This document shows, piece after piece, positions 3,158-46,309 of a DNA stretch of 50,462 bases (positions are counted from its first letter, which is position 1; each line of letters begins with the position of its first letter). Under the pieces are notes generated by a model, which was not told the DNA's origin, searched no databases, and saw nothing but the letters and a program-made list of their open reading frames with translations. The stretch comes from a bacterium. GTDB taxonomy: Bacteria > Patescibacteriota > Minisyncoccia > Moranbacterales > GWC2-37-73. The stretch covers positions 1 to 50,462 of the forward strand of contig JBAXDL010000007.1 in NCBI GenBank assembly GCA_037140955.1, in the 5' to 3' direction. Both the position numbers and the translations under genes were made by a program.

Positions 3158-3186
3158 TTGACATTTTGCAAATACTATGTCAAAAT
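3158..3186 (+). promoter_or_regulatory. sigma70-type promoter of the kinase operon
   Basis: TTGACA-17-CAAAAT with TG extension. Confidence 0.5.
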
Positions 3187-3242
3187 GCATTCTTGGTAAC
3201 TTAACAATTTTGCAACAAAAACACATAAAAAAGGAGAAGAAA

Positions 3243-4316
3243 ATGAAAAGAGCAATGTTTGATGCATTGATGGAGAGTACGACTGATTCAATAGTTTTTG
3301 CAGACATAAAAGGCAGATATTTGGATGTGAGCGAAAGAAAAGCTGAAAACTGGGGCAAAACTCGTCGCGAGATGATTGGACTTACTGATTCTGATCTTAT
3401 GAGCAAAGAAGAAGCAGCTCAGGCACAGGAAGACAGTTTTTATGTCATCCAAACTGGAAAATCCATCATAAATGTTAGGAGGAAGGCAATCAGAAATGAA
3501 AAAGTCGTTTGGTATTCCCTATCAGAACATCCCTGGATTGATGACAATGGAAAAATTGTTGGCACAATCAGCATCACCAGAAACATAACCTGCCAAATCG
3601 AGCAGGAGCAAAAAATTATTGCCATGTCCGAGCAAATAATAGACATGGTCAAAATTGTTAGTCATGACCTCTCTAGTCCCCTCATTAACATCAGCACCAT
3701 TGCAAAAAGAATCATGCGTGGAAGTTTTGGAGAAATCAATGATGAAGTCTTCAAGGCTGCAAATGAAATCTATCGCCGTATTTTAAAATTGCGCGGAGTG
3801 GTGCTGGACTATCTGCACAAATTTTCAAACCTTGATAAAGGCCAGGAAGTTGAAAAAGAAAATGATATTGACCTTCGAAAAGATGTGATTGATGAAGTTT
3901 TGGAAGAATTGGAGGATTGCATTTTAGACAACAATTCCAACATTGATTCATCCCTTGGTCTTATTCCCTATGGCATAATAATCTGCACCAACAAGGATAT
4001 TTTGAAAATCACATATAAAAATCTCATCACAAACGCTTTGAAATATGGCGGCAATGGCTGCACAATTTCTTTCGGTTTTGAAGATTGGGGTGACAGGTTT
4101 GCCCTGAATGTTTTCAATGATGGACCAGAAGTTCCAGAACAAGAAGTTCCCTTTCTTTTTGAGCCATTTGTGCAAGGTGGAAATGCCTCAAAGGGTGAAG
4201 GACTTGGAATTGGATTGGCCACAATCAAAAACATGATTTGCAATCTCGGTGGCGACATGTGGCACAAAACAACTTGGAGCAAGCATCCTAACTTTATTTT
4301 CACCGTACTAAAATAA
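3243..4316 (+). CDS. PAS-domain sensor histidine kinase (soluble)
   Basis: N-terminal PAS/PAC, H-box SHDLSSPL, N-box NLITNALKY, G2 GLGIGL; start moved to ATG 3243 behind AAGGAG. Confidence 0.9.
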   Translation: MKRAMFDALMESTTDSIVFADIKGRYLDVSERKAENWGKTRREMIGLTDSDLMSKEEAAQAQEDSFYVIQTGKSIINVRRKAIRNEKVVWYSLSEHPWIDDNGKIVGTISITRNITCQIEQEQKIIAMSEQIIDMVKIVSHDLSSPLINISTIAKRIMRGSFGEINDEVFKAANEIYRRILKLRGVVLDYLHKFSNLDKGQEVEKENDIDLRKDVIDEVLEELEDCILDNNSNIDSSLGLIPYGIIICTNKDILKITYKNLITNALKYGGNGCTISFGFEDWGDRFALNVFNDGPEVPEQEVPFLFEPFVQGGNASKGEGLGIGLATIKNMICNLGGDMWHKTTWSKHPNFIFTVLK

Positions 4317-4328
4317 AAGGAGAATGTC

Positions 4329-4736
4329 ATGAGTCAAATGATGGACTTGTTGTACTATTATGCAATTCTTGAGCAAGTTACTGATTCCATTGTCATCAAG
4401 GAATATTACTCTGATGGCAATGGAAATTTTGTTGGCGGAAAAATAAAATGTGCCAGCAAGGTAAAAGCTGAACACTACAACCTCATGATCAATGAAATTG
4501 TGGGAAAAACAGATTTTGACTTGATGCCATTTGAACAGGCACAAAAGGCTTTGGAAGATGATTTGCAAGTCATGCGAACGGGTATTTCCATTGAAAATAT
4601 GGAAGAAATTGTGACATATCCCAATGGAAAAACAGTTCACAAATCAACCTCAAAATCACCGCTTCATTATACTGACAAGAAGATCATTGGTGTCATCTGC
4701 GTTTCACGCAACATTGATATTCGCCCTACAAAATAG
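4329..4736 (+). CDS. stand-alone PAS domain protein
   Basis: GKTDFDLMP and IIGVICVSRNI motifs resemble the PAS of the upstream kinase; AAGGAG RBS. Confidence 0.8.
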   Translation: MSQMMDLLYYYAILEQVTDSIVIKEYYSDGNGNFVGGKIKCASKVKAEHYNLMINEIVGKTDFDLMPFEQAQKALEDDLQVMRTGISIENMEEIVTYPNGKTVHKSTSKSPLHYTDKKIIGVICVSRNIDIRPTK

Positions 4737-4740
4737 GACA

Positions 4741-4776
4741 AAAAAGACCTTGGCAAATTCTTGCTAAGGTCTTTTT
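4741..4776. terminator. bidirectional intrinsic terminator
   Basis: AAAAAGACCTTGGC/GCTAAGGTCTTTTT stem between convergent genes. Confidence 0.8.
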
Positions 4777-4797
4777 CATAGGCGCTTTAATGCCCTT

Positions 4798-5490
4798 TTA
4801 TTTTATAATTGTTCCAACAAAGTTTTCTCCATTTAAATATTTTTCAAAATTGGCAAGCTTTTTGCCATTCAAAATAACAACTTCCATCCCCTCTTTGGCT
4901 GCCAATTTTGAAGCAATTGGATCAAATGGCACATTAGCACCAGGATCCCAAGTGTCACCCACAATTTTTTGAAACTCTGTCCAATTGATCTCTTTTATTT
5001 TTTTGGCATCTTTGAATTTTCGAGGATCCTTGTCATAAGCATGATCAATGTTGGAAAGATTGGCAATATTTTTCACATCAAAATGTTTTGCCAAAAGTAC
5101 TGCAATATAGTCAGTTGAATTTCCTGGCTTATATCCTGCTGCAACCAAAATTGATTCCTTGGCCTTCAAAAAACTTTCCAAGTCATAAGGATTTTTGTTG
5201 ATGGTTGGATGCGCATGTTTTTTGAAAATAGTGCGAATAAAATGAGCATTCATACGGGTTGCATGAATTCCAATCCAATCCTTGTCCTCATTGTCAATGT
5301 CCCCCACTTTTGCCCCAGCTTCAATATATTTGCGCGCAGTTCTTCCTCCGCCAGCCACAATGATGAAGCGAAAACCTTTTGTGATTCCATTTTCAATAAC
5401 TTTTTTGAATTGTTTTACAAATTTCCAGTCAATCTCATCGGGCACAATAAGCGATCCACCAAGTGAAATAACAATTGTTTTTTTGTTCAT
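4798..5490 (-). CDS. pyrH: UMP kinase (archaeal-type)
   Basis: VISLGGS, GGGRTARKY, DWIGIHATRMNA, PGNSTD, PFDPIA motifs. Confidence 0.93.
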   Translation of the reverse strand: MNKKTIVISLGGSLIVPDEIDWKFVKQFKKVIENGITKGFRFIIVAGGGRTARKYIEAGAKVGDIDNEDKDWIGIHATRMNAHFIRTIFKKHAHPTINKNPYDLESFLKAKESILVAAGYKPGNSTDYIAVLLAKHFDVKNIANLSNIDHAYDKDPRKFKDAKKIKEINWTEFQKIVGDTWDPGANVPFDPIASKLAAKEGMEVVILNGKKLANFEKYLNGENFVGTIIK

Positions 5491-5504
5491 GAATTTTCTT
5501 TTTA

Positions 5505-5807
5505 CTAATTATTTTTTATATGTTCATCGGCTTGAGCTTTGGTTTCATGCAATTTTGCAATTGTTTTGGTGATTTCATCTTTAATTCCCAAAAACATTTC
5601 CAACCCTTTTTGCAATTCATCCAACCCTTTTTTGTATTTTCCGATAATTTCCTGGTCATTTCCATTTTCAGCAACCTGCTTTTCCAGCATGTCTTGTCCA
5701 GCTTGCAAATGACTCTCAATCTGCTCAACCTCCCCACTGATCTGCTTCAAATCCTCTTGCAACTTGGCATTAATTTCTTCAAATGTTTTTGGCTGATTGT
5801 TTTCCAT
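5505..5807 (-). CDS. hypothetical coiled-coil protein
   Basis: start MENNQPK at 5807 avoids overlap with the upstream gene; heptad-like sequence. Confidence 0.65.
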   Translation of the reverse strand: MENNQPKTFEEINAKLQEDLKQISGEVEQIESHLQAGQDMLEKQVAENGNDQEIIGKYKKGLDELQKGLEMFLGIKDEITKTIAKLHETKAQADEHIKNN

Positions 5808-5850
5808 ATTTTTAATTATTGAATTTATACATGATACATCATACAAAATA

Positions 5851-6282
5851 CTATTTTGAGCACTTACTCTCGGTTCTTCCCTGCCCAAGAGCTTCATCGG
5901 CACTCTTGAAACATACCACATTTTCGGGCTTGATGCGCTTGGCATATGAGCAGGTTGGGAGATAAAATTTGTTGGAACTTTTACTCCCAACATAGGCGCA
6001 ATTTGCCATATTTGGGACCGTGACAGTTTTGGTGGCTGATTGGCTGGCAGAAGCGGTCTTGGTCATCACTGAAGCGTCTGGGATGGCCGCAATTGCAGTT
6101 TCTTGCCCTATTTGTGTATCAGAAGGCTTTTCTATTATAAGAGGCTTTTGCTGCCATTTTTGGCCTTGCAGCACCCCAAATTCATATGAAATGGCGCTAA
6201 CTAGGCAAAAACCAACAAAAAGCATGATTTTTGTTTCATTTTCAAAGAAAAAGTCTTTAATTTTGTTGAATAATTGATTCAT
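5851..6282 (-). CDS. membrane-anchored protein with C-terminal Ada-like metal-binding domain
   Basis: one TM segment then YVGSKSSNKFYLPTCSYAKRIKPEN...FKSADEA motif; likely start MNQLFNK. Confidence 0.75.
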   Translation of the reverse strand: MNQLFNKIKDFFFENETKIMLFVGFCLVSAISYEFGVLQGQKWQQKPLIIEKPSDTQIGQETAIAAIPDASVMTKTASASQSATKTVTVPNMANCAYVGSKSSNKFYLPTCSYAKRIKPENVVCFKSADEALGQGRTESKCSK

Positions 6283-6408
6283 TGGTTTTTTTGAGCGTGA
6301 GACCATTTCTCTTTTTGGCCAACAGTTGGCGACAGCAACTCTTGAGCTTTTGGATAATGAGTATTTCATCCAAAAGCGTGCCAAAAAGGAAAATGTCCGA
6401 GCATGGAG

Positions 6409-6438
6409 CCTGGATTCCCGCCTCCGCGGGAATGACAA
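6409..6438. repeat. dRS3/CGTC-REP-like palindrome copy 1
   Basis: CCTGGATTCCC-GCCTCCGC-GGGAATGACAA; second copy at 7907-7936. Confidence 0.75.
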
Positions 6439-6441
6439 ACA

Positions 6442-6469
6442 TTGACATATTATCTATTTCTGTTAGAAT
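6442..6469 (+). promoter_or_regulatory. putative promoter upstream of the rpmA leader
   Basis: TTGACA-16-TAGAAT with TG extension. Confidence 0.45.
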
Positions 6470-6653
6470 ATCCCTTGTAACACTGAGTGACATTGAATCA
6501 TCTTTGGGCTCCCGCGCTGGGCGCATTTCATTGCCAAATGAATCCAAACGAAATTCACTTGCCACATTTTCCCCCACATCATTTCTCTCATTATATAATA
6601 TTTATGGATATTGTGTAACTGGCAGAAAATGACTCGTGGAATATTTATAAATC

Positions 6654-6817
6654 GAGTGGCGCCCCTACACCAATTTCAAAGAAAGATTTTGGTAGTATTT
6701 TTATAGGTTTCACGGGTTTCGCCTTCGACTCGATTTATTTTTAATTAACATATTATTTAGCAATTGGTGCGGGATGCCATTTTTGTGGCCGCTCGTAACC
6801 TCGCAGACAAAAATGGC
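6654..6817 (+). repeat. structured leader repeat family B, copy 1 (ends at rpmA ATG)
   Basis: aligns with the reverse complement of 12064-12229; terminal ACCAATT/AATTGGT stem. Confidence 0.8.
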
Positions 6818-7274
6818 ACATCGTAAAGCCGGTGGGTCTACCCAACTCGGACGAGATTCAATCTCGAAAAGACTTGGTGTTAAGATCTTTGGAAATCAAA
6901 AAGTAAAAACTGGAAACATCATCCTTCGTCAACGCGGAACTGCATATCACGCTGGAAAAAATGTGATGCGATGCAATGATGACACTTTGATGTCTCTTGT
7001 TGATGGAATTGTGAAATTCACTTCAAAGAAAGTTAGAAACTTCACTGGAGTTTTGGTGACTCGTCGCTATGTTGCAGTTGAAAAATCTGACACACCGATC
7101 GAAATCAAACCAAAAAAGACTGGTGCCAAGAAAGCTGGAGCAAAACTTCGCGTGAACTTGAAAACCAACGAAGCTGGAAAGAAAAAAGGAGCTTGGAAGG
7201 TTGCAAGAAAACCAAACATGCGAAAGACAACTCGAAAGCATTTGGTTGCAAGAATCGCAAAGAAAGCGAAATAG
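6813..7274 (+). CDS. rpmA: 50S ribosomal protein L27 with long basic C-terminal extension
   Basis: [32 protein letters not shown] signature; true start 6813. Confidence 0.95.
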
Positions 7275-7315
7275 TAAAAATAGTCCATCAAGCCTAAAGT
7301 CGAAAGACTAAAAAG

Positions 7316-7349
7316 AAAAAAGAAACCTCGCATGAGGTTTCTTTTTTTT
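7316..7349. terminator. intrinsic terminator after rpmA
   Basis: AGAAACCTC-GCAT-GAGGTTTCT plus T run. Confidence 0.85.
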
Positions 7350-7350
7350 G

Positions 7351-7887
7351 CTAAATTTTATTCAAAAGATCATTTTTTATCAATTTCAGTCCATCCAGAC
7401 TACCAGTCCATGGTACTATCTTTCTGATCATTTCACTTTCAATCTCTTCAAAACTCATCCATCTAACTTCTTGAACCTCACCATCTTTGAAGGACAATTC
7501 ATCCAGACTGCCAGTAAAATTGTAATAAAAAACGGAAACAACTTCTTTATTTTTTCCGCCATCATAAAATTCAACCGGACCAGAAATCAAATTTTTCATT
7601 TCAATATTCAAGCCAGTTTCTTCTTGCAATTCTCTTTGTGTTGCTTCATGAATTGTTTGGCCTGCTTCTACATGTCCGCCGAAACGAGTATCCCAGCTGT
7701 TGGGGTTTGCTGATTTAAATTTTGATCTCAAATGTGGCAATATTTCAATATTGTTGCCATTTTTTCTATAACAAATAATACTCGTAGTCCTATGACGCAA
7801 ACCTTTTTCATGACAAAAGCTGCGAAGCTCTCTTTCTCCAGTCAAATTCCCTTTTTCATCAACAATATCAAGATATTCTTCAGACAT
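7351..7887 (-). CDS. NUDIX hydrolase (IPP-isomerase-like subfamily)
   Basis: GGHVEAGQTIHEATQRELQEETGL Nudix box; start MSEEYLDIVD. Confidence 0.88.
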   Translation of the reverse strand: MSEEYLDIVDEKGNLTGERELRSFCHEKGLRHRTTSIICYRKNGNNIEILPHLRSKFKSANPNSWDTRFGGHVEAGQTIHEATQRELQEETGLNIEMKNLISGPVEFYDGGKNKEVVSVFYYNFTGSLDELSFKDGEVQEVRWMSFEEIESEMIRKIVPWTGSLDGLKLIKNDLLNKI

Positions 7888-7906
7888 AAATTTTATACAC
7901 CAAAAA

Positions 7907-7936
7907 CCTGGATTCCCATTTTCATGGGAATGACAA
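7907..7936. repeat. dRS3/CGTC-REP-like palindrome copy 2
   Basis: CCTGGATTCCC-ATTTTCAT-GGGAATGACAA. Confidence 0.75.
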
Positions 7937-7963
7937 GAAGATAATTTCTTTTTATACAAAATA

Positions 7964-9604: not shown

Positions 9605-9605
9605 T

Positions 9606-10381: not shown

Positions 10382-11074
10382 TCAAATGACACACTTGATT
10401 TGTCTTTTGTTTCGCATGAACACAAAAACAAACAAGGCCTGAGATGCAATTGTTTTCATTATTTCAATATCCTCAATTCTTTGACTTGCTCCTGATTTTT
10501 TGATCACAATATATGAAAAAATATTATCAATAGCACGCGGCGAAGTAATGATGATGAAATTTTTAAATTCAAAATGACTAATGCCAAATTCTCTACCTTT
10601 AAATGAAAAATCAATTTCAATTTCTTGATTATTTTTAAATTCCTTAATCAAGGCATAATCCTGCAACTGCACAAATCTAAGAGAAAAATCATTTGACTTT
10701 GCAAACAAACGAATTGCTTGCATGATATCATCAAACAATTCTGTTTTCCCTTGTGGTGTTAGCTTTGAGCTTTCCGGATACCCTAGGGCTATATTTTCCA
10801 AAATATCAAGCTTTCTGTTGATTTCTCCAATATATGAATAGGAATATTTAAGATCCTTAGACATACTATTAACTCGTCCTTGAATTTTATTTTTTTCAAC
10901 AAGATTTTTATTATAAAGCTTTTCCAACATCAAAAACAAGCCAAAGCCAATTGAGCCAAGAACCAAAATGGCAAGCTCTTGAACTTGAGTAGCACTAAGA
11001 AAATAAAAACCACTATTAATAGAAGTTGGAACGAAAACTATAAAGATAAAAATGGTCAAATATATCCAATACAT
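10382..11074 (-). CDS. hypothetical membrane protein
   Basis: two N-terminal TM segments, coiled coil, possible degenerate GAF-like C-terminus. Confidence 0.7.
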   Translation of the reverse strand: MYWIYLTIFIFIVFVPTSINSGFYFLSATQVQELAILVLGSIGFGLFLMLEKLYNKNLVEKNKIQGRVNSMSKDLKYSYSYIGEINRKLDILENIALGYPESSKLTPQGKTELFDDIMQAIRLFAKSNDFSLRFVQLQDYALIKEFKNNQEIEIDFSFKGREFGISHFEFKNFIIITSPRAIDNIFSYIVIKKSGASQRIEDIEIMKTIASQALFVFVFMRNKRQIKCVI

Positions 11075-12229: not shown

Positions 12230-12236
12230 CGTTTCG

Positions 12237-15648: not shown

Positions 15649-16089
15649 ATGCAAAGAAAGTTAACAGCAGAACAAGAGGCCATGCTTGAGGCAAGATTAT
15701 CAGTGGCTATTGTAAGGGATGTCATCAAAAGACACTTCAATTTTGATTACATCGTCGCGACAAAGGATTGCCTTTGTGGATATTGCCAAAAGACCATAGC
15801 TCGTGGAAATCCAGCAATTTCAGTCAAAAATTTCGAAAGAAAAAAATCTGCTCGCATCATTGTTTGCGACAAAGGTTGCCTCGATGGACATGAAACTGCA
15901 GAGATTGCATTTTTTGGATGCAAAGAGTTGGAAAAATTACCAACCCTTGATTACAAGAAAAGAATCATGAACAAAGATGATTTAATAATTGGCTACTACG
16001 AACGCCTATTGGCGGCCAAGCAAAATGCAGTTGATAACGTCGTTGAGCTTCACAGGAACTTCCAAATGCAGTGCGAATATCAAGATTAA
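15649..16089 (+). CDS. hypothetical protein with putative zinc finger
   Basis: CGYC...CDKGC Cys pairs; AAGGAG RBS. Confidence 0.75.
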   Translation: MQRKLTAEQEAMLEARLSVAIVRDVIKRHFNFDYIVATKDCLCGYCQKTIARGNPAISVKNFERKKSARIIVCDKGCLDGHETAEIAFFGCKELEKLPTLDYKKRIMNKDDLIIGYYERLLAAKQNAVDNVVELHRNFQMQCEYQD

Positions 16090-16160: not shown

Positions 16161-16448
16161 TTAATTTTGACGAGCAAGTTCATGCTCGAAAATTTCTTCA
16201 ACATCGGCCTCGTTTTCAGCATTTGAAAACATGCCGTATCCTGGAGTTGGCTTGCATTCACTGTGAAGCTCTGACTGAAATTCTTGATAAAAATTATCAC
16301 AAAGAAAATCATACAGAGCTTGCTTGCCTGAGCCATCGAGGTCATTGACGTCAAAATCAATATCATCATCCTCACACTTCTTTTCCACAAATTCAAGCAA
16401 TTCATCATAATCCATGTCTTGAATTTTTTCCAGTAGTTTCCAGTTCAT
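16161..16448 (-). CDS. small acidic hypothetical protein
   Basis: 95 aa, very Asp/Glu-rich; start MNWKLLE behind AGGGG. Confidence 0.7.
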   Translation of the reverse strand: MNWKLLEKIQDMDYDELLEFVEKKCEDDDIDFDVNDLDGSGKQALYDFLCDNFYQEFQSELHSECKPTPGYGMFSNAENEADVEEIFEHELARQN

Positions 16449-20936: not shown

Positions 20937-21350
20937 TTACTTTGAAGTAAATACAGGCGGAAGCTTATTCTCTGTTTCTATGCTTGCATTGATTAGCTTT
21001 TTTTCAATTTCATTTTTTCTTGAAATGTTTGCCAAAATACTCAAATGAACTTCGTCCTTAAAAATTGAAAGATAATCAGTAAACATACTAGCATAACAAC
21101 GCTTAGCAAAAGAAACATACACCCTTGAAGCCACTTCACCATAAAAATCATTGAAATATTGTTCAAAATAATTCCTAGCTTTTTCCTTGTTTTTTTCTGG
21201 AAAGTGATTAATTGCGATATACAAAAAATCGCAAGCACCACAGTTCAAGAGCCCTATTGCTCTTTGCAGATTAGCTTCTGTTAAGATGCTAATGGGAGAA
21301 AAATAACCAAATACAGCTTCTTCGCAATACAAAAAGGCAACTTTTTTCAT
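20937..21350 (-). CDS. hypothetical protein
   Basis: 137-aa ORF with strong AAGGAGG RBS and its own terminator. Confidence 0.65.
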   Translation of the reverse strand: MKKVAFLYCEEAVFGYFSPISILTEANLQRAIGLLNCGACDFLYIAINHFPEKNKEKARNYFEQYFNDFYGEVASRVYVSFAKRCYASMFTDYLSIFKDEVHLSILANISRKNEIEKKLINASIETENKLPPVFTSK

Positions 21351-28859: not shown

Positions 28860-28896
28860 AAAGCCCCCTAAGTCATTTGACTGAGGGGGCTTTTTT
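28860..28896 (-). terminator. terminator of the three-gene islet
   Basis: AAAGCCCCCT/AGGGGGCTTT stem with inner AGTC/GACT. Confidence 0.8.
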
Positions 28897-30038
28897 TACT
28901 TGATGTAGAGGATATGTTCTTTCATCCTCTCTCTTTCAACTGCTGTGGCATTTTTCTTGTCCACGGCTGTTGATCTTTGGGCAGGCGGAGTGTAAGTGTT
29001 ACCACTTGTCTTACTGCCTTTGCCCGAAATTGCTGACGACATCTGACTTAGAACCATTTTTCTGGCCCTTTCATCATCTGCCGCTGAAGCATGATGGCAT
29101 TTGGTACAAGCGTGCACATCATAATTTTCTGCACCCTTCACACCAATGTGAATCGACTGAAAGGTAGGTGCGACATAGGTGATGACATTCACGTTGCCAC
29201 TGCCACCTTTGCCATGCTTTACTTTGTTCAGATAAACTTTGACATCCGCTGAATTTCCGCGAATGTTGTTGTTCTGAACATCCTGTCTGGCATTAGGCGC
29301 ATATATAATCGCCGTGTTGCCACTCTTCTTTTTGCCCTTGCCTTTGCCAAAGTCGTTTACCTGATTGATATTCAGGAAAGAAGTGGCATTGGCTTGCGAG
29401 CTGTTGTTGGCAGCCGCAGATTGATTGGTTGCTGCAGCGCTATTGTGCGCAGCAGCTGCTGATTGGTTGGTTGCAACTGCACCTTGATCAGAACCATTGT
29501 TGGCAGCTTTTTCTGCTGCCACTTTTTCAGTAGCATGCTTTCTAGCCGCCACAGCCCTGGAATCATCACAGCCATTGGCTGAAATCGGAGACCAGGTTGC
29601 CATACCTCCTCCGGTATACACGAAATGTGCACCACCGGACTCTGCGATGTCAGCTGTAAAATATGACATGCCAATTTCGACATGCCCTGCCGTTTTCACG
29701 CGACAGTCAGGTATTGCCAACCAGAGGCCACCTTTTTTGAAATTAAAGGCGATCTGTCCATCCAAAATGGCATCTTTTGGAATTCTGTATCTTGAGACGT
29801 CTCCATTTTTCTCAAATGGATCAACTCCGAACTTGTTTCCGCAGCCAGCGCGGAGATTGTCCTGGCAAAATAAAATCATTTGCCAATCACCTTCTCCAGC
29901 AGCTTTTACCTGCACAACACCATACGTATCGCTAGAAACAACAGTGTTGTTGTCTCTTGTTGGAAACGTTGCTGCAAAACTTGCAGCAGCAACCATCATC
30001 AGTACACACCCCAGGACCAAAGAAATGATCTTTTTCAT
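28896..30038 (-). CDS. secreted hypothetical protein with CxxCH motif
   Basis: signal peptide ending ASFA, Ala/Asn-rich linker, CTKCH near the C-terminus, AAGGAG RBS. Confidence 0.75.
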   Translation of the reverse strand: MKKIISLVLGCVLMMVAAASFAATFPTRDNNTVVSSDTYGVVQVKAAGEGDWQMILFCQDNLRAGCGNKFGVDPFEKNGDVSRYRIPKDAILDGQIAFNFKKGGLWLAIPDCRVKTAGHVEIGMSYFTADIAESGGAHFVYTGGGMATWSPISANGCDDSRAVAARKHATEKVAAEKAANNGSDQGAVATNQSAAAAHNSAAATNQSAAANNSSQANATSFLNINQVNDFGKGKGKKKSGNTAIIYAPNARQDVQNNNIRGNSADVKVYLNKVKHGKGGSGNVNVITYVAPTFQSIHIGVKGAENYDVHACTKCHHASAADDERARKMVLSQMSSAISGKGSKTSGNTYTPPAQRSTAVDKKNATAVERERMKEHILYIK

Positions 30039-31240
30039 TTTACTTCTCCTTTTTGGTTGGACGTTTCCTCGTCCATAGTTTTTTCGGAAACCACAACTTG
30101 GTTTGTTCCTGGCATTATCACATAATCACCAGTTGAAACCTTTGTCACGGTTGTTTCTTGATTCATTTCAACACCTTTCTGCTCGAGTTTGACGCTTCTC
30201 TCACGGAGATTAGCATCAATTGCGCGCAGGTCAGTGTTGACCTTGTAGCCTGCAAAGGCTCCAAGGAATGGTCCACCTTTGGCAAAATTTGCCGAAATGC
30301 CAATTTCAATCCTGTCATACAAATCGAAAACAATTTCTGGTCCAAGACCAATAACTGTTTCGCTTCTCATAAAGTTGAGACCAGCAAATGGTCCAAAGCG
30401 GACCTTGATGTCCCTGTTGAAGCGATGCTCCCACATGAGAGCAAGTCCCAAATAGGAATCACCACCAAAATACTGTCCATCAGCACTGGCAATCAACTTA
30501 TCCCTACCTCCAACCGTATGTGCATACTGGAGATATCCGCCAGGCATAAAGCCTTTGCCGGATGATTTCTCTCCAAAACGATACATTGGCCTGAACTTGG
30601 CAAGAATATCATCTTCTTCGCCCAGTGCTTGGTAGTAACTCAGGTTTAGCCCTGGAGCAAAATATCCCCAGTGATAACCATTGTCACTCCAGCCCTTGTC
30701 CGCCTTGGCAGTAAGGCCAACCCCAAAATTACGAGGTTGTTCTTTGCCTGCCCACCAATGTGTCCATTCGCCCATTGACCAAATGCCTTTTGATTTTGCA
30801 CCCATTGCATACCATCCTCCGGCATACAAAGTGTACTCATCAAAGGTGTGTTGTTTCTTTTCAACCACCACCGGATTGGCAGTGGAAGGAGAAATTATCC
30901 AGCTGACTTCTGCAACTGCAGGAGTTCGTGCTGGAACTGGTTTCTCTTCTGCTGCTTTTGCCACAACAACCGCCTTAACCTCCTCCTTGACGGGTTCTGG
31001 TTTTGGCATCAAAGCAACTACAGCATCTGGCACTGATTTAGGAGGAGAAACAACTTCCACCTTCATCGGCACTGCTTTGGGGTTGGCGGCAAGTGCCTTG
31101 GCACGGCGGTTATTCAAAATCTCAATAACCTTGGCAGTGCTTTGACTTACCATCCCAATCCCCTCGACGTACACCATTTCTTGCCCCCAAGCATTGGGCA
31201 CAAGAAAAACTAACAACATACAAAACATAAGCTTTTTCAT
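30035..31240 (-). CDS. secreted protein, probable beta-barrel domain
   Basis: signal peptide ending AWG, Pro/Val linker, long Gly/aromatic-rich alternating strands; AAGGAG RBS. Confidence 0.7.
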   Translation of the reverse strand: MKKLMFCMLLVFLVPNAWGQEMVYVEGIGMVSQSTAKVIEILNNRRAKALAANPKAVPMKVEVVSPPKSVPDAVVALMPKPEPVKEEVKAVVVAKAAEEKPVPARTPAVAEVSWIISPSTANPVVVEKKQHTFDEYTLYAGGWYAMGAKSKGIWSMGEWTHWWAGKEQPRNFGVGLTAKADKGWSDNGYHWGYFAPGLNLSYYQALGEEDDILAKFRPMYRFGEKSSGKGFMPGGYLQYAHTVGGRDKLIASADGQYFGGDSYLGLALMWEHRFNRDIKVRFGPFAGLNFMRSETVIGLGPEIVFDLYDRIEIGISANFAKGGPFLGAFAGYKVNTDLRAIDANLRERSVKLEQKGVEMNQETTVTKVSTGDYVIMPGTNQVVVSEKTMDEETSNQKGEVK

Positions 31241-31243
31241 GAC

Positions 31244-32236
31244 TCACTCCTTTCGTTTCTTTTTGGGATTTTTTTTGACCGCAGCAGTTTCGACTTTTGG
31301 AGTTTCAACTTTTGCAGCAACGATGGTTTCTTTTGATTTTTCCTCATCAATCTTTTTTGCAACCAAGATCTTGAGGACTTCTTTCTCTTCATTGAGTTGC
31401 CGGATTACTTCCAAACGAAGTTTTCCAATAAACTCAACGATCTGACCCATCATTAGACGGTCAGGAAGTTGAGACATATAATCCCAACCCTGTGACTTTG
31501 CAGTCATTCCTTCAATGATGGAAGATCCAATAGTCCAAAGGGTGTAAATTGGGTTGGTACTAATCGTAACCTTCCCATTAAGCACCACCTTGTCCAAAAG
31601 GTTGTACCCAGGATTAATCCTGGCTATCGTCTTAAAATCTTCATCTCCATAGGGAGTGAAAACTTCGCCTTGATAGGTGGAATAAAGATTCCACGACTGA
31701 ACATTTTTTTCAAAACCACTCATCCGATGTCTTTTTCCTACTCTCGAACCTTCCTTTTTGATTGTCTCAGCTCGATACGCTCTTTCATTGCGAAAGCGAG
31801 CAGCATCGATCATTGCCAAGACTCCTTCAAAATTGCAAACGAATTCGCCCTTTGAAGAAAGCAGTACCACATTTGCATCGCGCAGCTTTTCCTTATCACC
31901 CTCAATAATAACTGAGAAGCGATACTCTCCGGACTTATACATCCCAGAAAGCACAAATTGGGTAAAAAACTCTTCACCCTCCTTGTTTACAGCCAAGCCA
32001 TTCCAACGTATCCGACCTGGATACATTTCAGCGGAGATGCACTTGTCAGCAACAGGAGCTTCCACAATCGTGATTGCTCCGTCTTTGACATTTCGTGTGG
32101 CGGCAACACCAACTGATTGCACCGGTGTTACCAAAAGATTAATTGGATCATTAAGATCCAAAGGGCCATCCTTCATGACCAGAGTGTTTGCACACCCCGT
32201 CAGCATCAAAACTACCAACAAACAAAATACTTTCAT
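31244..32236 (-). CDS. putative lipoprotein
   Basis: lipobox LTGC after a hydrophobic core; AAGGAG RBS. Confidence 0.75.
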   Translation of the reverse strand: MKVFCLLVVLMLTGCANTLVMKDGPLDLNDPINLLVTPVQSVGVAATRNVKDGAITIVEAPVADKCISAEMYPGRIRWNGLAVNKEGEEFFTQFVLSGMYKSGEYRFSVIIEGDKEKLRDANVVLLSSKGEFVCNFEGVLAMIDAARFRNERAYRAETIKKEGSRVGKRHRMSGFEKNVQSWNLYSTYQGEVFTPYGDEDFKTIARINPGYNLLDKVVLNGKVTISTNPIYTLWTIGSSIIEGMTAKSQGWDYMSQLPDRLMMGQIVEFIGKLRLEVIRQLNEEKEVLKILVAKKIDEEKSKETIVAAKVETPKVETAAVKKNPKKKRKE

Positions 32237-32373
32237 GATATTCTCCTTTTTGTATGTTTTATAAACTATTTAGTTTTTAAGTTACAAACCCGAACCAATT
32301 TCGAGTTTATCCAGAGGCTTCTTTGCAATACAATCAGAAGCCTCCCAATCTACCCAAAATCGAAAACTATTTT

Positions 32374-34849: not shown

Positions 34850-35332
34850 TTAATATGCAATAAGTCCGTCAGTCCCAACAGTTTTGACTGCACCGTTTAT
34901 GCTAAAGGTGCAAACTGCTGGGTCAGTGTTAAATGAGATAAAAGTTCCGTCTGGCCGCACTAAGTACGGCATGCCAGCACCTGATCCCAATGCTTTGGCA
35001 GTCCCAGCAATAACAGTTTTTGGCAAAACCAGCAAAGCAACTTTGCCTCCAGCTGGATACCAACTGCCATTGTCATTCCAGGCAATTCTATAGCCTGAAA
35101 TAATATTACCAGCGGCATCCAACACTTTTTCTGTAGGATTGCTAGTCACCAATCCAATGAGCTTATCCCCTTCAATGACTGGCGTTATTTCAACTTCTCC
35201 AGTCACAGTGTTGACACTCACTAATGTTTTGGAGACAACTACAGGTGTGGAAGCGGCCGATCCAGATGCTGAAACTGAACCACAACCACAGACAAAAAAA
35301 CAAACCACCAACAATAAAATAAATTTCTGCAT
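34850..35332 (-). CDS. putative lipoprotein
   Basis: signal peptide with VCGC lipobox-like site; AAGGAGG RBS. Confidence 0.75.
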   Translation of the reverse strand: MQKFILLLVVCFFVCGCGSVSASGSAASTPVVVSKTLVSVNTVTGEVEITPVIEGDKLIGLVTSNPTEKVLDAAGNIISGYRIAWNDNGSWYPAGGKVALLVLPKTVIAGTAKALGSGAGMPYLVRPDGTFISFNTDPAVCTFSINGAVKTVGTDGLIAY

Positions 35333-40210: not shown

Positions 40211-40217
40211 GAATACA

Positions 40218-40354: not shown

Positions 40355-40366
40355 TCATTACGAAAT

Positions 40367-41683: not shown

Positions 41684-41813
41684 AATAAGTAGCAGAAATA
41701 TAAATAAGCCTTGCTTAGAAATTTTCTATTTATTTTAAAAAATTATTAACAACCCACTAGATATTACTGAGTAAAAAACTCATTAAGACTAATACAAGAG
41801 GAGAATATTAATA

Positions 41814-41847
41814 TTTCCAATATCACCAACAAGGGTGATATTGGAAA
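41814..41847. repeat. perfect 14-bp palindrome (REP-like or terminator)
   Basis: TTTCCAATATCACC-AACAAG-GGTGATATTGGAAA. Confidence 0.6.
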
Positions 41848-41894
41848 CAAAAGTTTGTACCCTCAAATTGGTCAAAACACCATGCAAGCAAAAA

Positions 41895-42074
41895 CTATTC
41901 TAAAGAAATAGCGTTTACCGGGCAACTGTCTACAGCCTCTTGCACGTCGCAATCTCCACAATCTTCACTAACAACGTGTGATTTTCCATCCTTTATTTGA
42001 AACACGCTAGAACATAGTGATTCACATGTTCCACATCCGATGCACAAATCTTCGTTTACAACTGGTTTTGTCAT
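41895..42074 (-). CDS. small ferredoxin (59 aa, absent from the ORF track)
   Basis: manual translation MTKPVVNEDLCIGCGTCESLCSSVFQIKDGKSHVVSEDCGDCDVQEAVDSCPVNAISLE; CxxCxxC...CP. Confidence 0.93.
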   Translation of the reverse strand: MTKPVVNEDLCIGCGTCESLCSSVFQIKDGKSHVVSEDCGDCDVQEAVDSCPVNAISLE

Positions 42075-42099
42075 ATTATTTTTTTTAAAAAATTATTTA

Positions 42100-43167
42100 T
42101 TAAAACATTATCGACGCATCACCTTGAAACTTTGCTCTTTCAACTGCTTCAAATTCGCGCATTTTTTCATCCCTAAAATCAACCATGCCCTTTTTTGAAT
42201 CCCAAGTAAACTCAGCCAATGGCAAAGAAACTTTCATTTGTTTCTTTTGCGTGTCCAGCCAATCACTAAACGAATCTTTGGAAACAAAAATTTGTCTCAA
42301 CTGCAAAATATCCTCACCATTTTCTTTTTTGCTATTTTCAATTTCAACAATATGAAAACCAATAGAACTTTCTATGATTGAATTTTTTTGAAAAGAACTT
42401 TTTCCAAACAATGCCTCTTGTAACTGCGGCAAAACCTGATCTTTCTTTGCCCAACCAAGTTCACCATCTTTTTCACGAGAAGGTCCCTGTGAATACATAC
42501 GCACAACTTGAACAAATTCTTTTCCAGCTTCAAGATCTTTCTGTGCTTGCAAAATCTTTTCCTTGGCCGATGCTGTGCCTCCAAGTTCTTCTGCTTGGAT
42601 TTTGCTTGCCAATGCATCAGCATAAATTCCAGGCAAAACAATTCGCTGTTTGAATTCTTCCACATCCCAACCATATGATTTCAAAAGATCAGCCTTAAAA
42701 TCTTCCGCGCTTCCAAATTCAGCCAGTTTTTGAGATACAACTTTTTCAGCATCCTTGTCGCCAAAAGAAAGACCTCTTTCTTTTGATAAAACCTCAATAA
42801 TCTTGTCTTCAACCATTTTGTCTAAAATCTCTCTTTCTTTGATCCTCAGACGTTTTTTTCCATTTTCTGTTGTAAAATCAATGCGTAAACCCTCTTTAGC
42901 AAAATCCTGTGTCTGATAAAACTTCTGGACAGATGCCATGTTCTTTTCAACATCGTTGATATATACAATATTTGTCCAGCCAATAATCGCAGCAGGAAAA
43001 GGAATCACTTTGGCAATTTTGACAGCTATTTTGTTGCCTATTTCAGTGTTTGTGCCATAGGCCAAAATGCTGCCAACAAGCAAAACAACCACAAACAAAA
43101 TCAAAATGCCATACACAAGAGTTGATACTTTTACTTTTTTTTCGTCGCTATCGATGTGTTTTTTCAT
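42100..43167 (-). CDS. SurA/PrsA-like parvulin foldase
   Basis: N-terminal TM, SurA-N helices, DGELGW..., IESSIGFHIV. Confidence 0.85.
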   Translation of the reverse strand: MKKHIDSDEKKVKVSTLVYGILILFVVVLLVGSILAYGTNTEIGNKIAVKIAKVIPFPAAIIGWTNIVYINDVEKNMASVQKFYQTQDFAKEGLRIDFTTENGKKRLRIKEREILDKMVEDKIIEVLSKERGLSFGDKDAEKVVSQKLAEFGSAEDFKADLLKSYGWDVEEFKQRIVLPGIYADALASKIQAEELGGTASAKEKILQAQKDLEAGKEFVQVVRMYSQGPSREKDGELGWAKKDQVLPQLQEALFGKSSFQKNSIIESSIGFHIVEIENSKKENGEDILQLRQIFVSKDSFSDWLDTQKKQMKVSLPLAEFTWDSKKGMVDFRDEKMREFEAVERAKFQGDASIMF

Positions 43168-43215
43168 AAAATAAAATTTATTTTTTCAGCAATCAAAACT
43201 TTTTTTGTTTACTTT

Positions 43216-43599
43216 TTAATATTTAAAAAAGAAATTCCACCATTTTTGATAATTAGGAACAGCTGCCTGAGGTTGAACATCCTCCTCAATTGCAACCTCT
43301 TGCTGCTGCTCTTTTTGGGCGCCAGGCTTTACTACTACCACACTTTCATCAGTTTTTTGGAGATTGAGCTTTTCTTTAGCAATCTTTTCTTGAAAATCAC
43401 TAGTTTCAAAATATGCAATACGCTGACCAAGCAAATCATTCTCTTTGGCAATACGATCAGCTTCCTGTTGCAATGCTTGAACCTCTTTCTCGATTGTTTT
43501 TGAGCGATAAGCCTCACGCACAGCACTGATCGAGATTAAAACAGCCAGAACAATACCAGCGATAAAAAAAATAACCACGAATGAAAACTTTTTTTTCAT
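43216..43599 (-). CDS. septum formation initiator (FtsB/DivIC family)
   Basis: TM plus coiled coil, EKIAKEKLNL...ESVVVV. Confidence 0.85.
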   Translation of the reverse strand: MKKKFSFVVIFFIAGIVLAVLISISAVREAYRSKTIEKEVQALQQEADRIAKENDLLGQRIAYFETSDFQEKIAKEKLNLQKTDESVVVVKPGAQKEQQQEVAIEEDVQPQAAVPNYQKWWNFFFKY

Positions 43600-43605
43600 T
43601 TTGTT

Positions 43606-43719
43606 TTAACGTCCAATAAATAATGAAGACAGAGAAAATCCAACCATTGAAATGATGGCCAAAACAGAGATTATTATCCACAGTATTTTCGCTCTTCTTT
43701 TTCTTTTTTGATGACTCAT
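43606..43719 (-). CDS. 37-aa small membrane protein (absent from the ORF track)
   Basis: manual translation MSHQKRKRRAKILWIIISVLAIISMVGFSLSSLFIGR; basic N-terminus plus one TM, stop 6 nt before the next gene. Confidence 0.7.
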   Translation of the reverse strand: MSHQKRKRRAKILWIIISVLAIISMVGFSLSSLFIGR

Positions 43720-43842
43720 CCGGTAGTAGAAATTCGAATGGCCTTTGGCCAAAACTAATCTCAAAAATTAACAACTAAACTTTATTTTTTCCGAAAGTAA
43801 AAATTCTTACAAAACAACTTATTTTCGAATTTTCACTACCGG
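43720..43842. mobile_element. MITE-like palindromic element family A, copy 2
   Basis: terminal IR CCGGTAGT/ACTACCGG flanked by ACTCAT direct repeats (43714-43719, 43843-43848). Confidence 0.78.
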
Positions 43843-43894
43843 ACTCATGCTTTTATTTTATCAAATTTTTTAGTAAAATACAACACACAAAAAA

Positions 43895-45694
43895 CTATTT
43901 TTTAAGCACTGCCAAATATGCTTCTGATGGCACTTGAACTTTTCCAATGCTGCGCATTTTCTTTTTCCCCTTCTTTTGTTTATCAAGAAGCTTATTTTTT
44001 CGCGTCACGTCGCCTCCATATAGTCCAGAAATAACATCTTTGCGAAAAGGCCTGATGGTTTCACGTGCAATAATTTTTGCTCCAATTGAAGCCTGCACTG
44101 GAATCACAAAGTTTTGACGCGGAATGGCAGCGGCCAATTTTTCCACAATTCTTTTTCCTTCACCGTGAGCGCGCTCCCTTGGGACAATGCGACCCAGCGC
44201 TTCCACAACTTCCCCCGCCAAAAGAATGTCCAATTTGATCAAGTCAGATTTTCGATATCCCACCACATCATAACTCATGGAAGCGTAGCCAGAAGAAACA
44301 CTTTTCAAATCATCATGAAAATTCACGATAATGTCCATCAGTGGAACCTCAAAAGTCAGCAATATTCTTTCCAGATCAATATATTCAGTGTTGAGATATG
44401 TTGAGCGCAACGTTCCCATAAGCTCCATGATTGATCCAAGATATGTTGCGGGTGTAATGATGTCCAATTTCACATATGGCTCAGAAATCTCCTCAAGCTG
44501 CGAAGGATCTGGCATTTGTGTTGCACTATAAATCTTTTTTATTTCATCGGATCCGCGCAGTTTAATTTCATAGACTACACTTGGCGTGGTGATGGTTGGA
44601 GAAAAATCAAATTCTCGTTCAAGTCTTTCGCGAATAATTTCCAAATGCAAAAGCCCAAGGAATCCACAACGAAATCCTTTTCCAAGAGCCAGATTGCTTT
44701 CCGGCTCAAAAACAAATGATGCATCATTCAATTTCAATTTCTCCAAAGAATCGCGCATTGCATTGTATGCATCTCCCTCAATCGGATACAGACCAGCATA
44801 AACCATCGGCCTCACCTCCTTGTATCCTTCCAATGCTTGCACATGTGTGGCATCACCTTCAACTGTGATGGTATCACCAACACGACAAAACTCCACGCTT
44901 TTAAGTCCAGTGGCGATATAGCCAATGTCACCAGCTGTTAGCATCTGTGTGGCTGAAAATTCTGGCTTGAAATATCCCACTTCGATCACACCACTTTCTT
45001 TTTCAGTTGCCATCATGCGAATTTCATCATCGCGCTTCACATGACCATCCACAATGCGGACATAGGCCAGCACTCCTTTGTAAGTGTCATATTTTGAATC
45101 AAAAATAAGTGCGCGAAGTGGTTTCTCGCTGTCACCATTGGGAGCAGGAACTTTTTCAATAATAGTTTTTAAAATTTGATCCACTCCCACGCCAGTTTTT
45201 CCAGAAGCTTCCAAGATATCCTCTTCTTTGCAGCCAAGGATGTGAATGATTTCTTTTTTGGTTTTTTCCACATTTGAATTTGGCAAATCAATTTTGTTCA
45301 CTACTGGAATAATTTCCAAATCCTGTTCAATGGCCAAATACAAATTAGAAAGTGTTTGTGCTTGCACTCCCTTGGTTGCATCAACCAACAGCACCGCTCC
45401 TTCCACGGCTGCCAATGATCTTGAAACTTCATAGCCAAAATCAACATGACCAGGAGTGTCAATAAGATTCAAGATATAATCCTCGCCATTTGAAGAATAG
45501 TTCATACGAGCTGGTTGCAACTTGATGGTGATGCCGCGTTCTCGCTCAATATCCATCTGATCCAGCAATTGCTCCTTCATTCTGCGCATTTCCACGGTTT
45601 TGGTCACCTCCAAAAGCCTGTCAGCCAAAGTTGACTTGCCATGGTCTATATGCGCAATTATACAAAAGTTTCTAACGTTTTTTTGTTGATCCAT
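43895..45694 (-). CDS. lepA: elongation factor 4
   Basis: RNFCIIAHIDHGKSTLADR, ERERGITIK, GFRCGFLGLLH, YGGDVTRK; start MDQQKNV. Confidence 0.98.
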   Translation of the reverse strand: MDQQKNVRNFCIIAHIDHGKSTLADRLLEVTKTVEMRRMKEQLLDQMDIERERGITIKLQPARMNYSSNGEDYILNLIDTPGHVDFGYEVSRSLAAVEGAVLLVDATKGVQAQTLSNLYLAIEQDLEIIPVVNKIDLPNSNVEKTKKEIIHILGCKEEDILEASGKTGVGVDQILKTIIEKVPAPNGDSEKPLRALIFDSKYDTYKGVLAYVRIVDGHVKRDDEIRMMATEKESGVIEVGYFKPEFSATQMLTAGDIGYIATGLKSVEFCRVGDTITVEGDATHVQALEGYKEVRPMVYAGLYPIEGDAYNAMRDSLEKLKLNDASFVFEPESNLALGKGFRCGFLGLLHLEIIRERLEREFDFSPTITTPSVVYEIKLRGSDEIKKIYSATQMPDPSQLEEISEPYVKLDIITPATYLGSIMELMGTLRSTYLNTEYIDLERILLTFEVPLMDIIVNFHDDLKSVSSGYASMSYDVVGYRKSDLIKLDILLAGEVVEALGRIVPRERAHGEGKRIVEKLAAAIPRQNFVIPVQASIGAKIIARETIRPFRKDVISGLYGGDVTRKNKLLDKQKKGKKKMRSIGKVQVPSEAYLAVLKK

Positions 45695-45743
45695 AAATTT
45701 CAATATTTCCTTAATACTACACATAAAGTTTGTTTTAAGCAAG

Positions 45744-45778
45744 AAAAGGACCTGCTCGCATTTGCAAGCAGGTCCTTT
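45744..45778 (-). terminator. terminator of the 45780-46223 gene
   Basis: AAAGGACCTGCT/AGCAGGTCCTTT stem. Confidence 0.8.
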
Positions 45779-45779
45779 G

Positions 45780-46223
45780 TTATTTCTTGTTGAGGAAATA
45801 GTTCCTTGGAATTTCTTTCCTTTCCTCAACAATTTCGCAGGCTATTTGATCATAGCCTTTGATTATGAGGTACTTTCTACTCTTGTGCGTTTTCTTGTTT
45901 TCCGCAACAAGATTGACGAATGTCCCTTCCATCAAAAACATTGGACTTTTTTCAATTTCCAATGTCACATCTCCTTTGGAAAAGACCAAGACACTTAGTT
46001 GTGCAGTCTGCAACCACTGCATCTGCACCTTGCCTTTTGCATCGAAAATACTTTCGATGCCTTGCTGCGAATTGGCAAAGCGAGAAAGATCAGGACACTG
46101 CAGTTTGGCAAAATTTCTTGCCAATTCAATATCCAATTCTTGATAATCCTGAGCCAGTGTTGGCAGCGGCAAAGATACCAAAACTGCAACAAACACCACA
46201 AACATCATTTTCAAACTTTTCAT
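45780..46223 (-). CDS. secreted hypothetical protein
   Basis: signal peptide ending TLA; GGGAGG RBS before MKSLKMM. Confidence 0.75.
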   Translation of the reverse strand: MKSLKMMFVVFVAVLVSLPLPTLAQDYQELDIELARNFAKLQCPDLSRFANSQQGIESIFDAKGKVQMQWLQTAQLSVLVFSKGDVTLEIEKSPMFLMEGTFVNLVAENKKTHKSRKYLIIKGYDQIACEIVEERKEIPRNYFLNKK

Positions 46224-46280
46224 TTTACTACCTCCCTTTGGGCTTGTTTCGAATTTTGCCATAAATTATGACAATTGATC

Positions 46281-46309
46281 ATTATAGCACCTTTGTGGCA
46301 ATTTGTAAA
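46281..46309 (-). promoter_or_regulatory. sigma70-type promoter
   Basis: TTTACA-17-TATAAT (TG-extended) on the minus strand. Confidence 0.65.

Follow-up and report, generated by a model that had tools for sequence, protein, structure and literature searches.

Why would a small set of genes carry strong ribosome-binding signals while the housekeeping genes around them carry none? The question is raised by contig JBAXDL010000007.1, a stretch of 50,462 nucleotides (nt) that was analysed at its full length and is called the window here. It is contig C7 of a 1.15-Mb genome in 27 contigs, with 36% guanine plus cytosine (GC) and rated 100% complete. We term the lineage Moranbacteria-like (candidate phyla radiation / Patescibacteria) because the closest relatives of its ribosomal protein bS21, up to 98% identical, are Candidatus Moranbacteria / Moraniibacteriota. 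An earlier reading of the window (the original prediction) had picked out ten genes with a Shine-Dalgarno (SD) motif, set in islets among SD-less core genes, and proposed a dedicated class with shared expression signals, possibly written for the ribosomes of a host. Our analysis upholds the distinct SD-led class and its shared signals and speaks against host-type ribosomes. The genes are probably self-contained accessory cassettes with an extended SD, read by the cell's own ribosomes, in a lineage whose core genes are SD-independent.

SD-led starts in the window

All ten starts named in the original prediction (3243, 4329 and 15649 on the forward strand; 16448, 21350, 30038, 31240, 32236, 35332 and 46223 on the reverse strand) have AAGGAG, GGAGG, GGGAGG or AGGGGG ending 6-9 nt ahead of the ATG, and in the 45 nt printed for each leader an A run usually precedes the motif. 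The leaders of the seven core genes that had been set against them (pyrH, rplI, rmlA, rmlC, glyA, clpB and murI) are A/T-rich and lack an SD, as do those of about 30 other window genes. A blind scan of both strands, for SD words 4-10 nt ahead of an ATG opening at least 90 codons, recovers all ten starts; its six extra hits (13679, 27658, 29603, 30805, 31813 and 44806) are in-frame internal ATGs and thus false positives. The ten genes are given below, one open reading frame (ORF) per line, with lengths in amino acids (aa); ORFan denotes an orphan ORF, and homologues were sought in two complete genomes, G007 of the same genus and G010 of the same family.

3243..4316, + strand: histidine kinase (PAS and HATPase_c domains), SD-led, AAGGAG 6 nt ahead of the ATG
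4329..4736, + strand: PAS-domain protein, SD-led; terminator hairpin after it, -26 kcal/mol; no homologue in G007 or G010
15649..16089, + strand: 146-aa ORF, SD-led; own TTGACA-17-TATGAT promoter; no Pfam family
16161..16448, - strand: 95-aa ORF, AGGGGG 9 nt ahead of the ATG; TTGACA-17-TATAGT promoter
20937..21350, - strand: 137-aa ORFan, SD-led, between rmlC and a DUF4012 gene
28896..30038, - strand: secreted protein with a conserved CxxCH, SD-led; last of a three-gene cassette, hairpin of -29 kcal/mol after it
30035..31240, - strand: signal-peptide protein, SD-led; residues ~127-330 predicted to form a 12-14-strand outer-membrane-type beta-barrel
31244..32236, - strand: lipoprotein (LTGC lipobox), SD-led; first gene of the cassette
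34850..35332, - strand: lipoprotein-like 160-aa ORFan, SD-led; TTGACA-17-TATACT promoter and terminator
45780..46223, - strand: 147-aa signal-peptide protein, SD-led (GGGAGG); TTTACA-17-TATAAT upstream, hairpin of -32 kcal/mol downstream; no homologue in G007 or G010

Pfam families were found for two of these ten ORFs, the PAS/HATPase kinase and the PAS protein, and for 30 of the 38 long window ORFs outside the set, which include pyrH, pyrG, glyA, rmlABCD, clpB, lepA, murJ, L9, L27, DUF4012, DUF2207 and DUF5656. The positional counterpart of the kinase in G007 is only 23% identical; that of its neighbour pyrH is 87% identical.

Two classes of genes across the genome

To place the ten genes in their genome, we used a custom-written gene caller (a third-order, frame-aware Markov model trained on 359 ORFs of at least 350 aa, with greedy removal of overlaps), which gave 1032 genes covering 85% of the genome. 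A strong SD was defined as AAGGAGG, AGGAGG, AAGGAG, GGAGG or AGGAG ahead of any candidate start. Scoring by pairing energy over several candidate starts was tried and replaced by these motifs; it gave noisy results, since the UUUCU part of the 16S tail pairs with windows rich in A. Genome-wide, GGAG/GAGG peaks sharply at -13 to -10 of starts, and the most frequent SD spacings are 5-8 nt. The strong motif precedes 106 of 1032 genes and, in a control set of internal in-frame starts, 50 of 875; pairing at -12 kcal/mol or stronger is found for 78 genes versus 30 and 35 in mock windows. Eighteen of the 106 were dropped as internal false positives, since homology reaches upstream of the supposed start, and with them went most of the hits of the control type. 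This leaves 88 SD-led genes, so that about one gene in twelve (88/1032, ~8%) carries a clean strong SD. The caller labels only seven of the ten window genes SD-led: it flags 3243 as internal because the 23%-identity alignment ran into an upstream extension of the ORF, leaves 15649 uncalled and gives 16448 a later start.

Whether a gene has an SD is tightly linked to whether it is conserved. Conservation was scored by tblastn of all 1032 proteins (E < 1e-5) against whole relative genomes cut into 20-kb pieces. A homologue in G007 was found for 18/88 SD-led and 670/926 SD-less genes (p = 1e-21), and one in G010 for 8/88 and 616/926 (p = 7e-27). The contrast persists in each length bin. It also holds among genes with upstream gaps of at least 100 nt, where 14 of 356 conserved and 51 of 166 non-conserved genes are SD-led, and when the 18 internal cases are restored (36/106 SD-led versus 670/926 with a G007 homologue). 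SD usage in core and ORFan genes is clearly not alike across the genome, and the SD-led genes are a distinct class, as had been proposed. The same split is seen from the side of the relatives. In G007, 77 of 919 genes are SD-led, and 15/77 of these versus 650/828 of the others are conserved in the window genome; the figures for G010 are 58 of 782, with 13/58 versus 557/711 conserved. G025, a member of the same order but another family of which 320 kb were examined, has 13 SD-led genes in 260, with 2/13 versus 170/242 conserved.

Core-type and SD-led genes have two distinct start contexts. At -1, T prevails in SD-less conserved genes (56%) and C in SD-led genes (41%); the former also favour A at -6 (58%). 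The 30 nt upstream of SD-led starts are richer in GC (0.36 versus 0.22) and the start region folds more strongly (-6.4 versus -4.6 kcal/mol). GC at third codon positions is 0.348 in the SD-led class, compared with 0.312 in core and 0.303 in SD-less non-conserved genes. As a check for leaderless transcripts, TATAAT-like hexamers were counted ahead of core genes and show a mild bump at -15 to -11, about 11 versus 6-7 per 100 genes.

SD-led proteins are shorter than others (median 142 aa) and diverge faster, with a median identity to the G007 match of 38.5% (n = 18) compared with 74% for SD-less genes (n = 670). The SD is kept in 10 of the 17 G007 counterparts that have a called gene, and the rest are mostly core paralogues. 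True orthologues that retain it are rpsU, a pilin gene and a hexapeptide transferase gene; the SD-led ParB, sigma factor, M16 peptidase and receiver proteins match SD-less core paralogues in G007.

Whose ribosomes read the class

Among ten relatives, two of them of the same genus, the 3' tail of 16S rRNA is canonical, with GGATCACCTCCTTTCTA in nine and GAATCACCTCCTTTCTA in the tenth, and all ten end in (G/A)ATCACCTCCTTTCTA. The consensus of the SD class, AAAGGAGG(T), pairs with the ...ACCUCCUUUCUA of these tails, including the U run. The genome's own bS21 gene, rpsU (C2:97662-97913, reverse strand), carries the SD TAGAAAGGAGGT, with 12 nt of uninterrupted complementarity to the 16S tail. In Moranbacteria-like rpsU loci such complementarity reaches at least 10 nt in 27/43 and at least 6 nt in 43/43. 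Given canonical tails and an SD on its own bS21 gene, the cell's own ribosomes can therefore read the class, and host ribosomes are unneeded. The idea that these genes were written for host-type ribosomes is accordingly not supported: besides the canonical tails, the genome's own bS21 and pilin genes use the same SD, and cytoplasmic regulators are among the members of the class (response regulators, a sigma factor, a GGDEF protein and a histidine kinase).

Three side observations concern the same genes. The other ribosomal-protein genes of the genome lack an SD, unlike rpsU. Among the rpsU loci compared (L112-L191), long SDs also occur in many from other candidate phyla. Finally, the last 80 nt of contig C15 end in the conserved stem of the rRNA-operon leader (AATCGCAATTTATTGTGGTTAGTCC), which accounts for the absence of a 16S gene from the assembly.

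Promoters, terminators and leader motifs

The islets carry their own transcription signals. A strict scan finds TTGACA-17-TAnnnT ahead of 15649, 16448 and 35332, and inspection by eye adds TTGACA-17-CAAAAT ahead of 3243 and TTTACA-17-TATAAT ahead of 46223, which brings to five the islets with a near-consensus promoter, the number first described. The strong hairpins described at islet ends were likewise found in all seven ends examined, at -19 to -32 kcal/mol and followed by T runs; the 15649 and 16161..16448 ORFs converge on a common one. Genome-wide, TTGACA lies within 100 nt upstream of 20/88 SD-led genes and 50/926 others, and CTTAA[AC]A upstream of 16/88 and 39/926, so the class does share expression signals beyond the window. 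Many SD-led leaders run TTGACA-17-TAnnnT, stem-loop, A run and SD, in that order.

Three leaders in the window had been described as holding a boxA-like motif, and all three are in place.

3196..3207, + strand: boxA-like leader motif GTAACTTAACAA, 36 nt ahead of the kinase start, resembling an element of the relatives' 16S leaders
32274..32285, - strand: boxA-like leader motif GTAACTTAAAAA; the same motif lies ahead of the homologous cassette on metagenome contig L193
35409..35420, - strand: leader motif GTACTTGAAAAA

Of the 13 gene-proximal sites that match TA[AGC]CTTAA[AC]A, eight lie ahead of SD-led genes with the kinase counted. BoxA belongs to the Nus-factor antitermination elements of rRNA leaders, and the GTAACTTAA[AC]A of the islet leaders resembles what is found there in relatives: an AAC(C)TT(T)(G/A)A(A/C)AA element lies in the 16S leader of nine of ten, ~170-270 nt ahead of 16S and just ahead of a conserved stem, and reads GAACCTTAAAAAG in two congeners and AACTTTGAAAA in several others. 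NusB is encoded (PF01029, E = 1.8e-33). With this element in the relatives and NusB in the genome, the name is reasonable. In two respects the likeness fails, in that only ~8-16 of the 88 SD-led leaders have the motif and the genome's own rRNA-leader fragment, at the end of C15, lacks it. Judged from the motif, boxA-like seems a fair label for a minority of leaders. The Rho RNA-binding domain (PF07497) was not found in the whole genome, which makes protection from Rho an unlikely role for it.

Shared leaders also occur in clusters elsewhere in the genome. At C14:17152-21494, seven SD-led genes stand in a row (a radical S-adenosylmethionine (SAM) protein, four small ORFans, a NUDIX protein and a basic membrane protein), and three of the genes have near-identical promoters (TTGACTTATGCCA-ATTTCTGCTATTAT) and a CTTAACAA leader motif. 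At C5:47030-50957, SD-led genes that include an M16 peptidase paralogue lie behind a common 'CGGACTATAAA(A)AGGAGG' leader, whose CGGACT(A/T)TAAA word is also found ahead of SD-led genes on C1, C8 and C10.

Islets between syntenic core genes

Collinearity holds between the window and two stretches of relatives, G007 contig C3 at 67-104 kb and G010 contig C1 at 155-185 kb; against this background the core genes are syntenic, and the islets between them are insertions or deletions. Both the 15649/16448 pair and the 20937-21350 gene are missing in G007 from between otherwise adjacent core genes: rmlD and hyp228, the flanks of 15649..16089, abut there without such an insert, and the gap matching 20937..21350 is 235 nt long and holds no gene. 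In G007, other SD-led genes without detectable similarity to these stand near pyrH, at the DUF1294/HtrA spot and in the polysaccharide region, and at the spot of 34850..35332 there is a different SD-led gene of 78 aa.

The three-gene cassette 28896-32236 (lipoprotein, barrel and CxxCH protein) has a GC content of 0.45 compared with 0.35 in its flanks. It recurs on L193 beside the same flanking gene (75% identical), with a GC content of 0.44 compared with 0.32 in the flank; all three genes are SD-led there, and their proteins are 43-60% identical to those of the window. Across 80 other genomes of the order, the CxxCH protein 28896-30038 occurs in four, the 20937-21350 gene in one, weakly, and the 34850-35332 gene in none; the SD-less hypothetical gene 10382-11074 occurs in 63. 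The tested SD-led families thus appear, from these searches, rare and endemic to the order. Upstream regions were examined for three of the four homologues of the CxxCH gene, whose products are 30-38% identical, and in all three the gene is SD-led. That the SD persists through such divergence argues for selection rather than for the decaying relic of a recent transfer.

A probable explanation: accessory cassettes with their own translation signal

In the explanation that we favour, the core genes of this lineage start without an SD, from A-rich leaders of ~22% GC in which A is preferred at -6 and T at -1. Some 8% of genes sit instead in cassettes composed of a sigma-70-type promoter, a 5' leader that sometimes holds a stem-loop or boxA-like element, the extended SD AAAGGAGG and an intrinsic terminator. 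This SD would pair with the lineage's own canonical 16S tail, the 3' end expected for the genome itself being ...CCUCCUUUCUA, and own ribosomes would read the cassettes. The cassettes are accessory and fast-evolving, occupy recurrent spots between syntenic core genes and differ between congeners. Selection may keep the SD because their GC-richer and more structured starts lack a core-type leader; the SD would then be needed for expression of the cassettes. Horizontal exchange within the order may be how they move.

Several points weigh against this explanation. SD-led genes make up 18/706 of the genes with a G007 homologue and only 70/326 of those without, so the SD singles out part of the accessory genes and leaves others unmarked. 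Conversely, a few conserved genes are SD-led, namely rpsU, the pilin-like gene and the hexapeptide transferase gene. In G033, a distant member of the phylum of which 400 kb were examined, motif hits (37/385, ~10%) show a weak positional peak and no link to conservation (23/37 versus 200/346); since G007, G010 and G025 have the split and G033 has none, the pattern is established at the level of the order and not of the phylum. No insertion scars were detected, the best shared words at six islet borders being 8-12 nt and within the null (mean ~6.6, maximum 16). The window genome's own 16S is unassembled, so its anti-SD is taken from relatives, and the SD class is motif-defined on gene calls and starts from a simple custom caller, not a standard tool.

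A parallel with Bacteroidia

The alternative that survives best is gated translation of the Bacteroidia type, which is compatible with the cassette explanation. In this scheme bS21, with bS18 and bS6, would hide the anti-SD on most ribosomes, and these would read the SD-less core mRNAs; ribosomes lacking bS21 would read the SD-led mRNAs, making them a regulon tied to bS21 supply via the long rpsU SD. For Bacteroidia, the accessible parts of published work describe SD-independent initiation, a hidden anti-SD and rpsU autoregulation (PMC7797042, PMC9976891, PMC13000453), and attribute the hiding to bS21, bS18 and bS6 (PMC7797042, PMC9976891). In Flavobacteriales, according to the accessible part of one of these accounts, only rpsU has a strong SD and SDs occur below chance frequency (PMC9976891).

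Our lineage resembles Bacteroidia in combining a canonical anti-SD with SD-less core genes and in its A-rich core start contexts. The rpsU SD is extended in both, at 12 nt here and 9-13 bp in the Bacteroidia as given in the portions of that literature available to us, and bS21 shares a signature residue. Jha et al. describe Tyr54 as a Bacteroidetes signature that stacks on A1534, in the accessible part of their paper (PMC7797042). Tyr53 of our bS21 aligns with Tyr54 of the Porphyromonas gingivalis protein (chain 9i5v), and position 53 is Tyr in 44/44 Moranbacteria-like sequences and Arg in 33/36 other candidate-phyla sequences. In bS18 (L194:1480-1686, reverse strand), residues 29 and 31 are Asn and Gln and coincide with Asn56 and Gln58 of Flavobacterium chain 7jil_w if the equal-length match (query 3-67, 7jil_w 30-94) is taken as ungapped. 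A bS6 gene with a long C-terminal extension is present; the part of bS6 that matters in Bacteroidia is a C-terminal helix with Trp100, Arg103 and Lys107.

The differences are nevertheless substantial. The lineage belongs to the candidate phyla radiation, and its bS18, on the same ungapped match, has Leu at the Phe50 position and Glu at the Lys37 position (Lys or Arg in the signature), so that two of four signature residues would match. Some 80 of its genes keep strong SDs that are conserved in homologues, which argues that the SD is read, whereas the accessible part of the Flavobacteriales account has one such gene, rpsU (PMC9976891). Neighbours of rpsU with an SD number 2/79 in lineages with the Tyr and 0/49 in those with the Arg; there is no difference, and in this sample the Tyr therefore does not track SD poverty. 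Because of the ~80 conserved SDs, and because the rpsU neighbours are SD-less in both lineages, we keep gated translation as a rival that is possible yet rather unlikely, not as our main explanation.

A bolder version, which we regard as improbable, would give Moranbacteria, and perhaps Parcubacteria more widely, two translation channels. Ribosomes loaded with bS21 would serve the SD-less core, and bS21-free ribosomes an SD-led accessory regulon with cassettes for the envelope and for host contact among its members, with the barrel maybe inserted in the outer membrane of a host. If this were true, the 12-nt rpsU SD would set the share of bS21-free ribosomes, and a mobile accessory gene pool would be switched on en bloc by a convergent reinvention of the Bacteroidia mechanism.

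What the class encodes: mobile elements or host genes?

Pfam families were found for 24 of 80 SD-led genes, the window genes being left out. They comprise four response-regulator receivers, a GGDEF protein, a second sigma-70, a second ParB, a ResIII helicase, a tail-collar protein, three or four radical-SAM proteins (one with SPASM), an M16 peptidase, a type IV secretion system (T4SS)-type pilin, LysM and 3D wall enzymes, NUDIX, bS21 and ATP synthase c. Five of the ten window genes have a signal-peptide-like N-terminus, two of these with a lipobox; genome-wide the SD-led class shows no enrichment in signal peptides (13/88, versus 66/670 and 48/256).

Some of these products would suit the cargo of prophages, plasmids or other mobile elements that keep the expression signals of such elements. 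Six of the 80 match phage-typical PHROG families (ParB, a DnaD-like loader, a head protease, a tail protein, a helicase and a transglycosylase), Pfam adds the tail collar, ResIII helicase, ParB and T4SS-type pilin, and a promoter and terminator of one's own are moron-like. Against such an origin, PHROG leaves 62 of the 80 unmatched and gives generic domains for 12 of the 18 that do match, and most genes in the prophage-like stretch of contig C4 are SD-less. Six window islets that were checked showed no flanking repeats, and by Pfam naming the genes next to the window islets include no integrase or phage gene, although no dedicated integrase search was made. We consider this origin unlikely.

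Less likely still, and by a wide step, is that the genes derive from a host or act as host-ribosome effector mRNAs or proteins of an episymbiont. This idea draws chiefly on the signal-peptide-like window genes and on the product of 30035-31240, which has an N-terminal signal-like sequence. An AlphaFold2 model from nine sequences has a mean pLDDT (predicted local distance difference test) of 61.8, with 12-14 long antiparallel strands at pLDDT 80-90 over residues ~127-330. Foldseek gives 103 matches at E of 0.001 or below, and every listed match is an outer-membrane barrel (FadL, OprB, autotransporter domains, FapF, OmpG and KdgM among those listed). The prediction for this product is thus a beta-barrel of outer-membrane type; the genome, which is rated 100% complete, has no match to Omp85/BamA (PF01103) and encodes Lgt and LspA. 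The product was found in 0/300 other Patescibacteria, and among 5.8 billion proteins its homologues form eight clusters; a scan of genome contigs with it returned no relative. Its feature-based look-alikes are families of double-membraned bacteria, which we treat as leads only, and the protein-atlas look-alikes of the 31244-32236 product all score below 0.9 and were set aside as leads likewise. Elsewhere in the genome, the SD-led signal-peptide protein at C4:37559-38581 (forward strand) ends in ...YLNF, a C-terminus like those of outer-membrane barrels. The proposal that the products look suited to another cell type thus applies to one protein, the predicted barrel. The host idea is weakened by the canonical anti-SD of relatives, by the SD shared with the genome's own rpsU and pilin genes, by the cytoplasmic regulators in the class and by the lack of signal-peptide enrichment, and the tested families are rare, occur in related Moranbacteria at the same locus and were not seen as widespread host families.

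An artefact of chance motifs, wrong starts, spurious ORFs or a chimeric assembled genome is the least credible account: A-rich coding sequence does yield chance motifs, as the internal-start control and the 18 internal cases show, and two of the ten window ORFs are small and lack homologues, but the positional peak is sharp, motif, spacing, ATG, promoter and terminator co-occur, three further genomes and one metagenome contig repeat the pattern, and the islets lie embedded between syntenic core genes on one contig.

A side observation on the core genes of the window concerns L27. Its ORF at 6774-7274 (forward strand) has 153-166 aa, and the L27 domain occupies residues 15-92 of the longer reading; the protein therefore has a long C-terminal extension.

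Related systems and meaning for Patescibacteria

Phage morons are autonomous accessory cassettes with their own promoter and terminator. The islets are like them in being single genes or short operons with both signals amid conserved syntenic genes, and in varying between close relatives; they differ in being chromosomal, between housekeeping genes and not in a prophage, and in having a translation signal that the surrounding genes lack. Streamlined free-living bacteria have hypervariable genomic islets, which share with ours the recurrent hot spots, the strain-specific and often envelope-related cargo and the small genome; the cargo here is set apart by its own class of translation-initiation signal. 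From integron cassettes the islets differ in having no flanking repeats above the null at the six borders, an integrase not having been searched for.

SD-poor lineages with a canonical anti-SD are already known, notably the Bacteroidia, in which the SD is left essentially only on rpsU, as described in the accessible part of PMC9976891. What is seen here is a clean split inside one candidate-phyla genome, in which an SD predicts an accessory, fast-evolving and islet-borne gene. We found no description of such a split between SD and accessory genes in the full-text literature searched, a coverage that stops short of subscription journals.

If the pattern is general, SD status would offer a cheap sequence marker of the flexible genome in uncultured Patescibacteria, and gene callers trained on a single start model would mis-start one of the two classes. 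It would also make testable how streamlined symbionts express newly gained genes.

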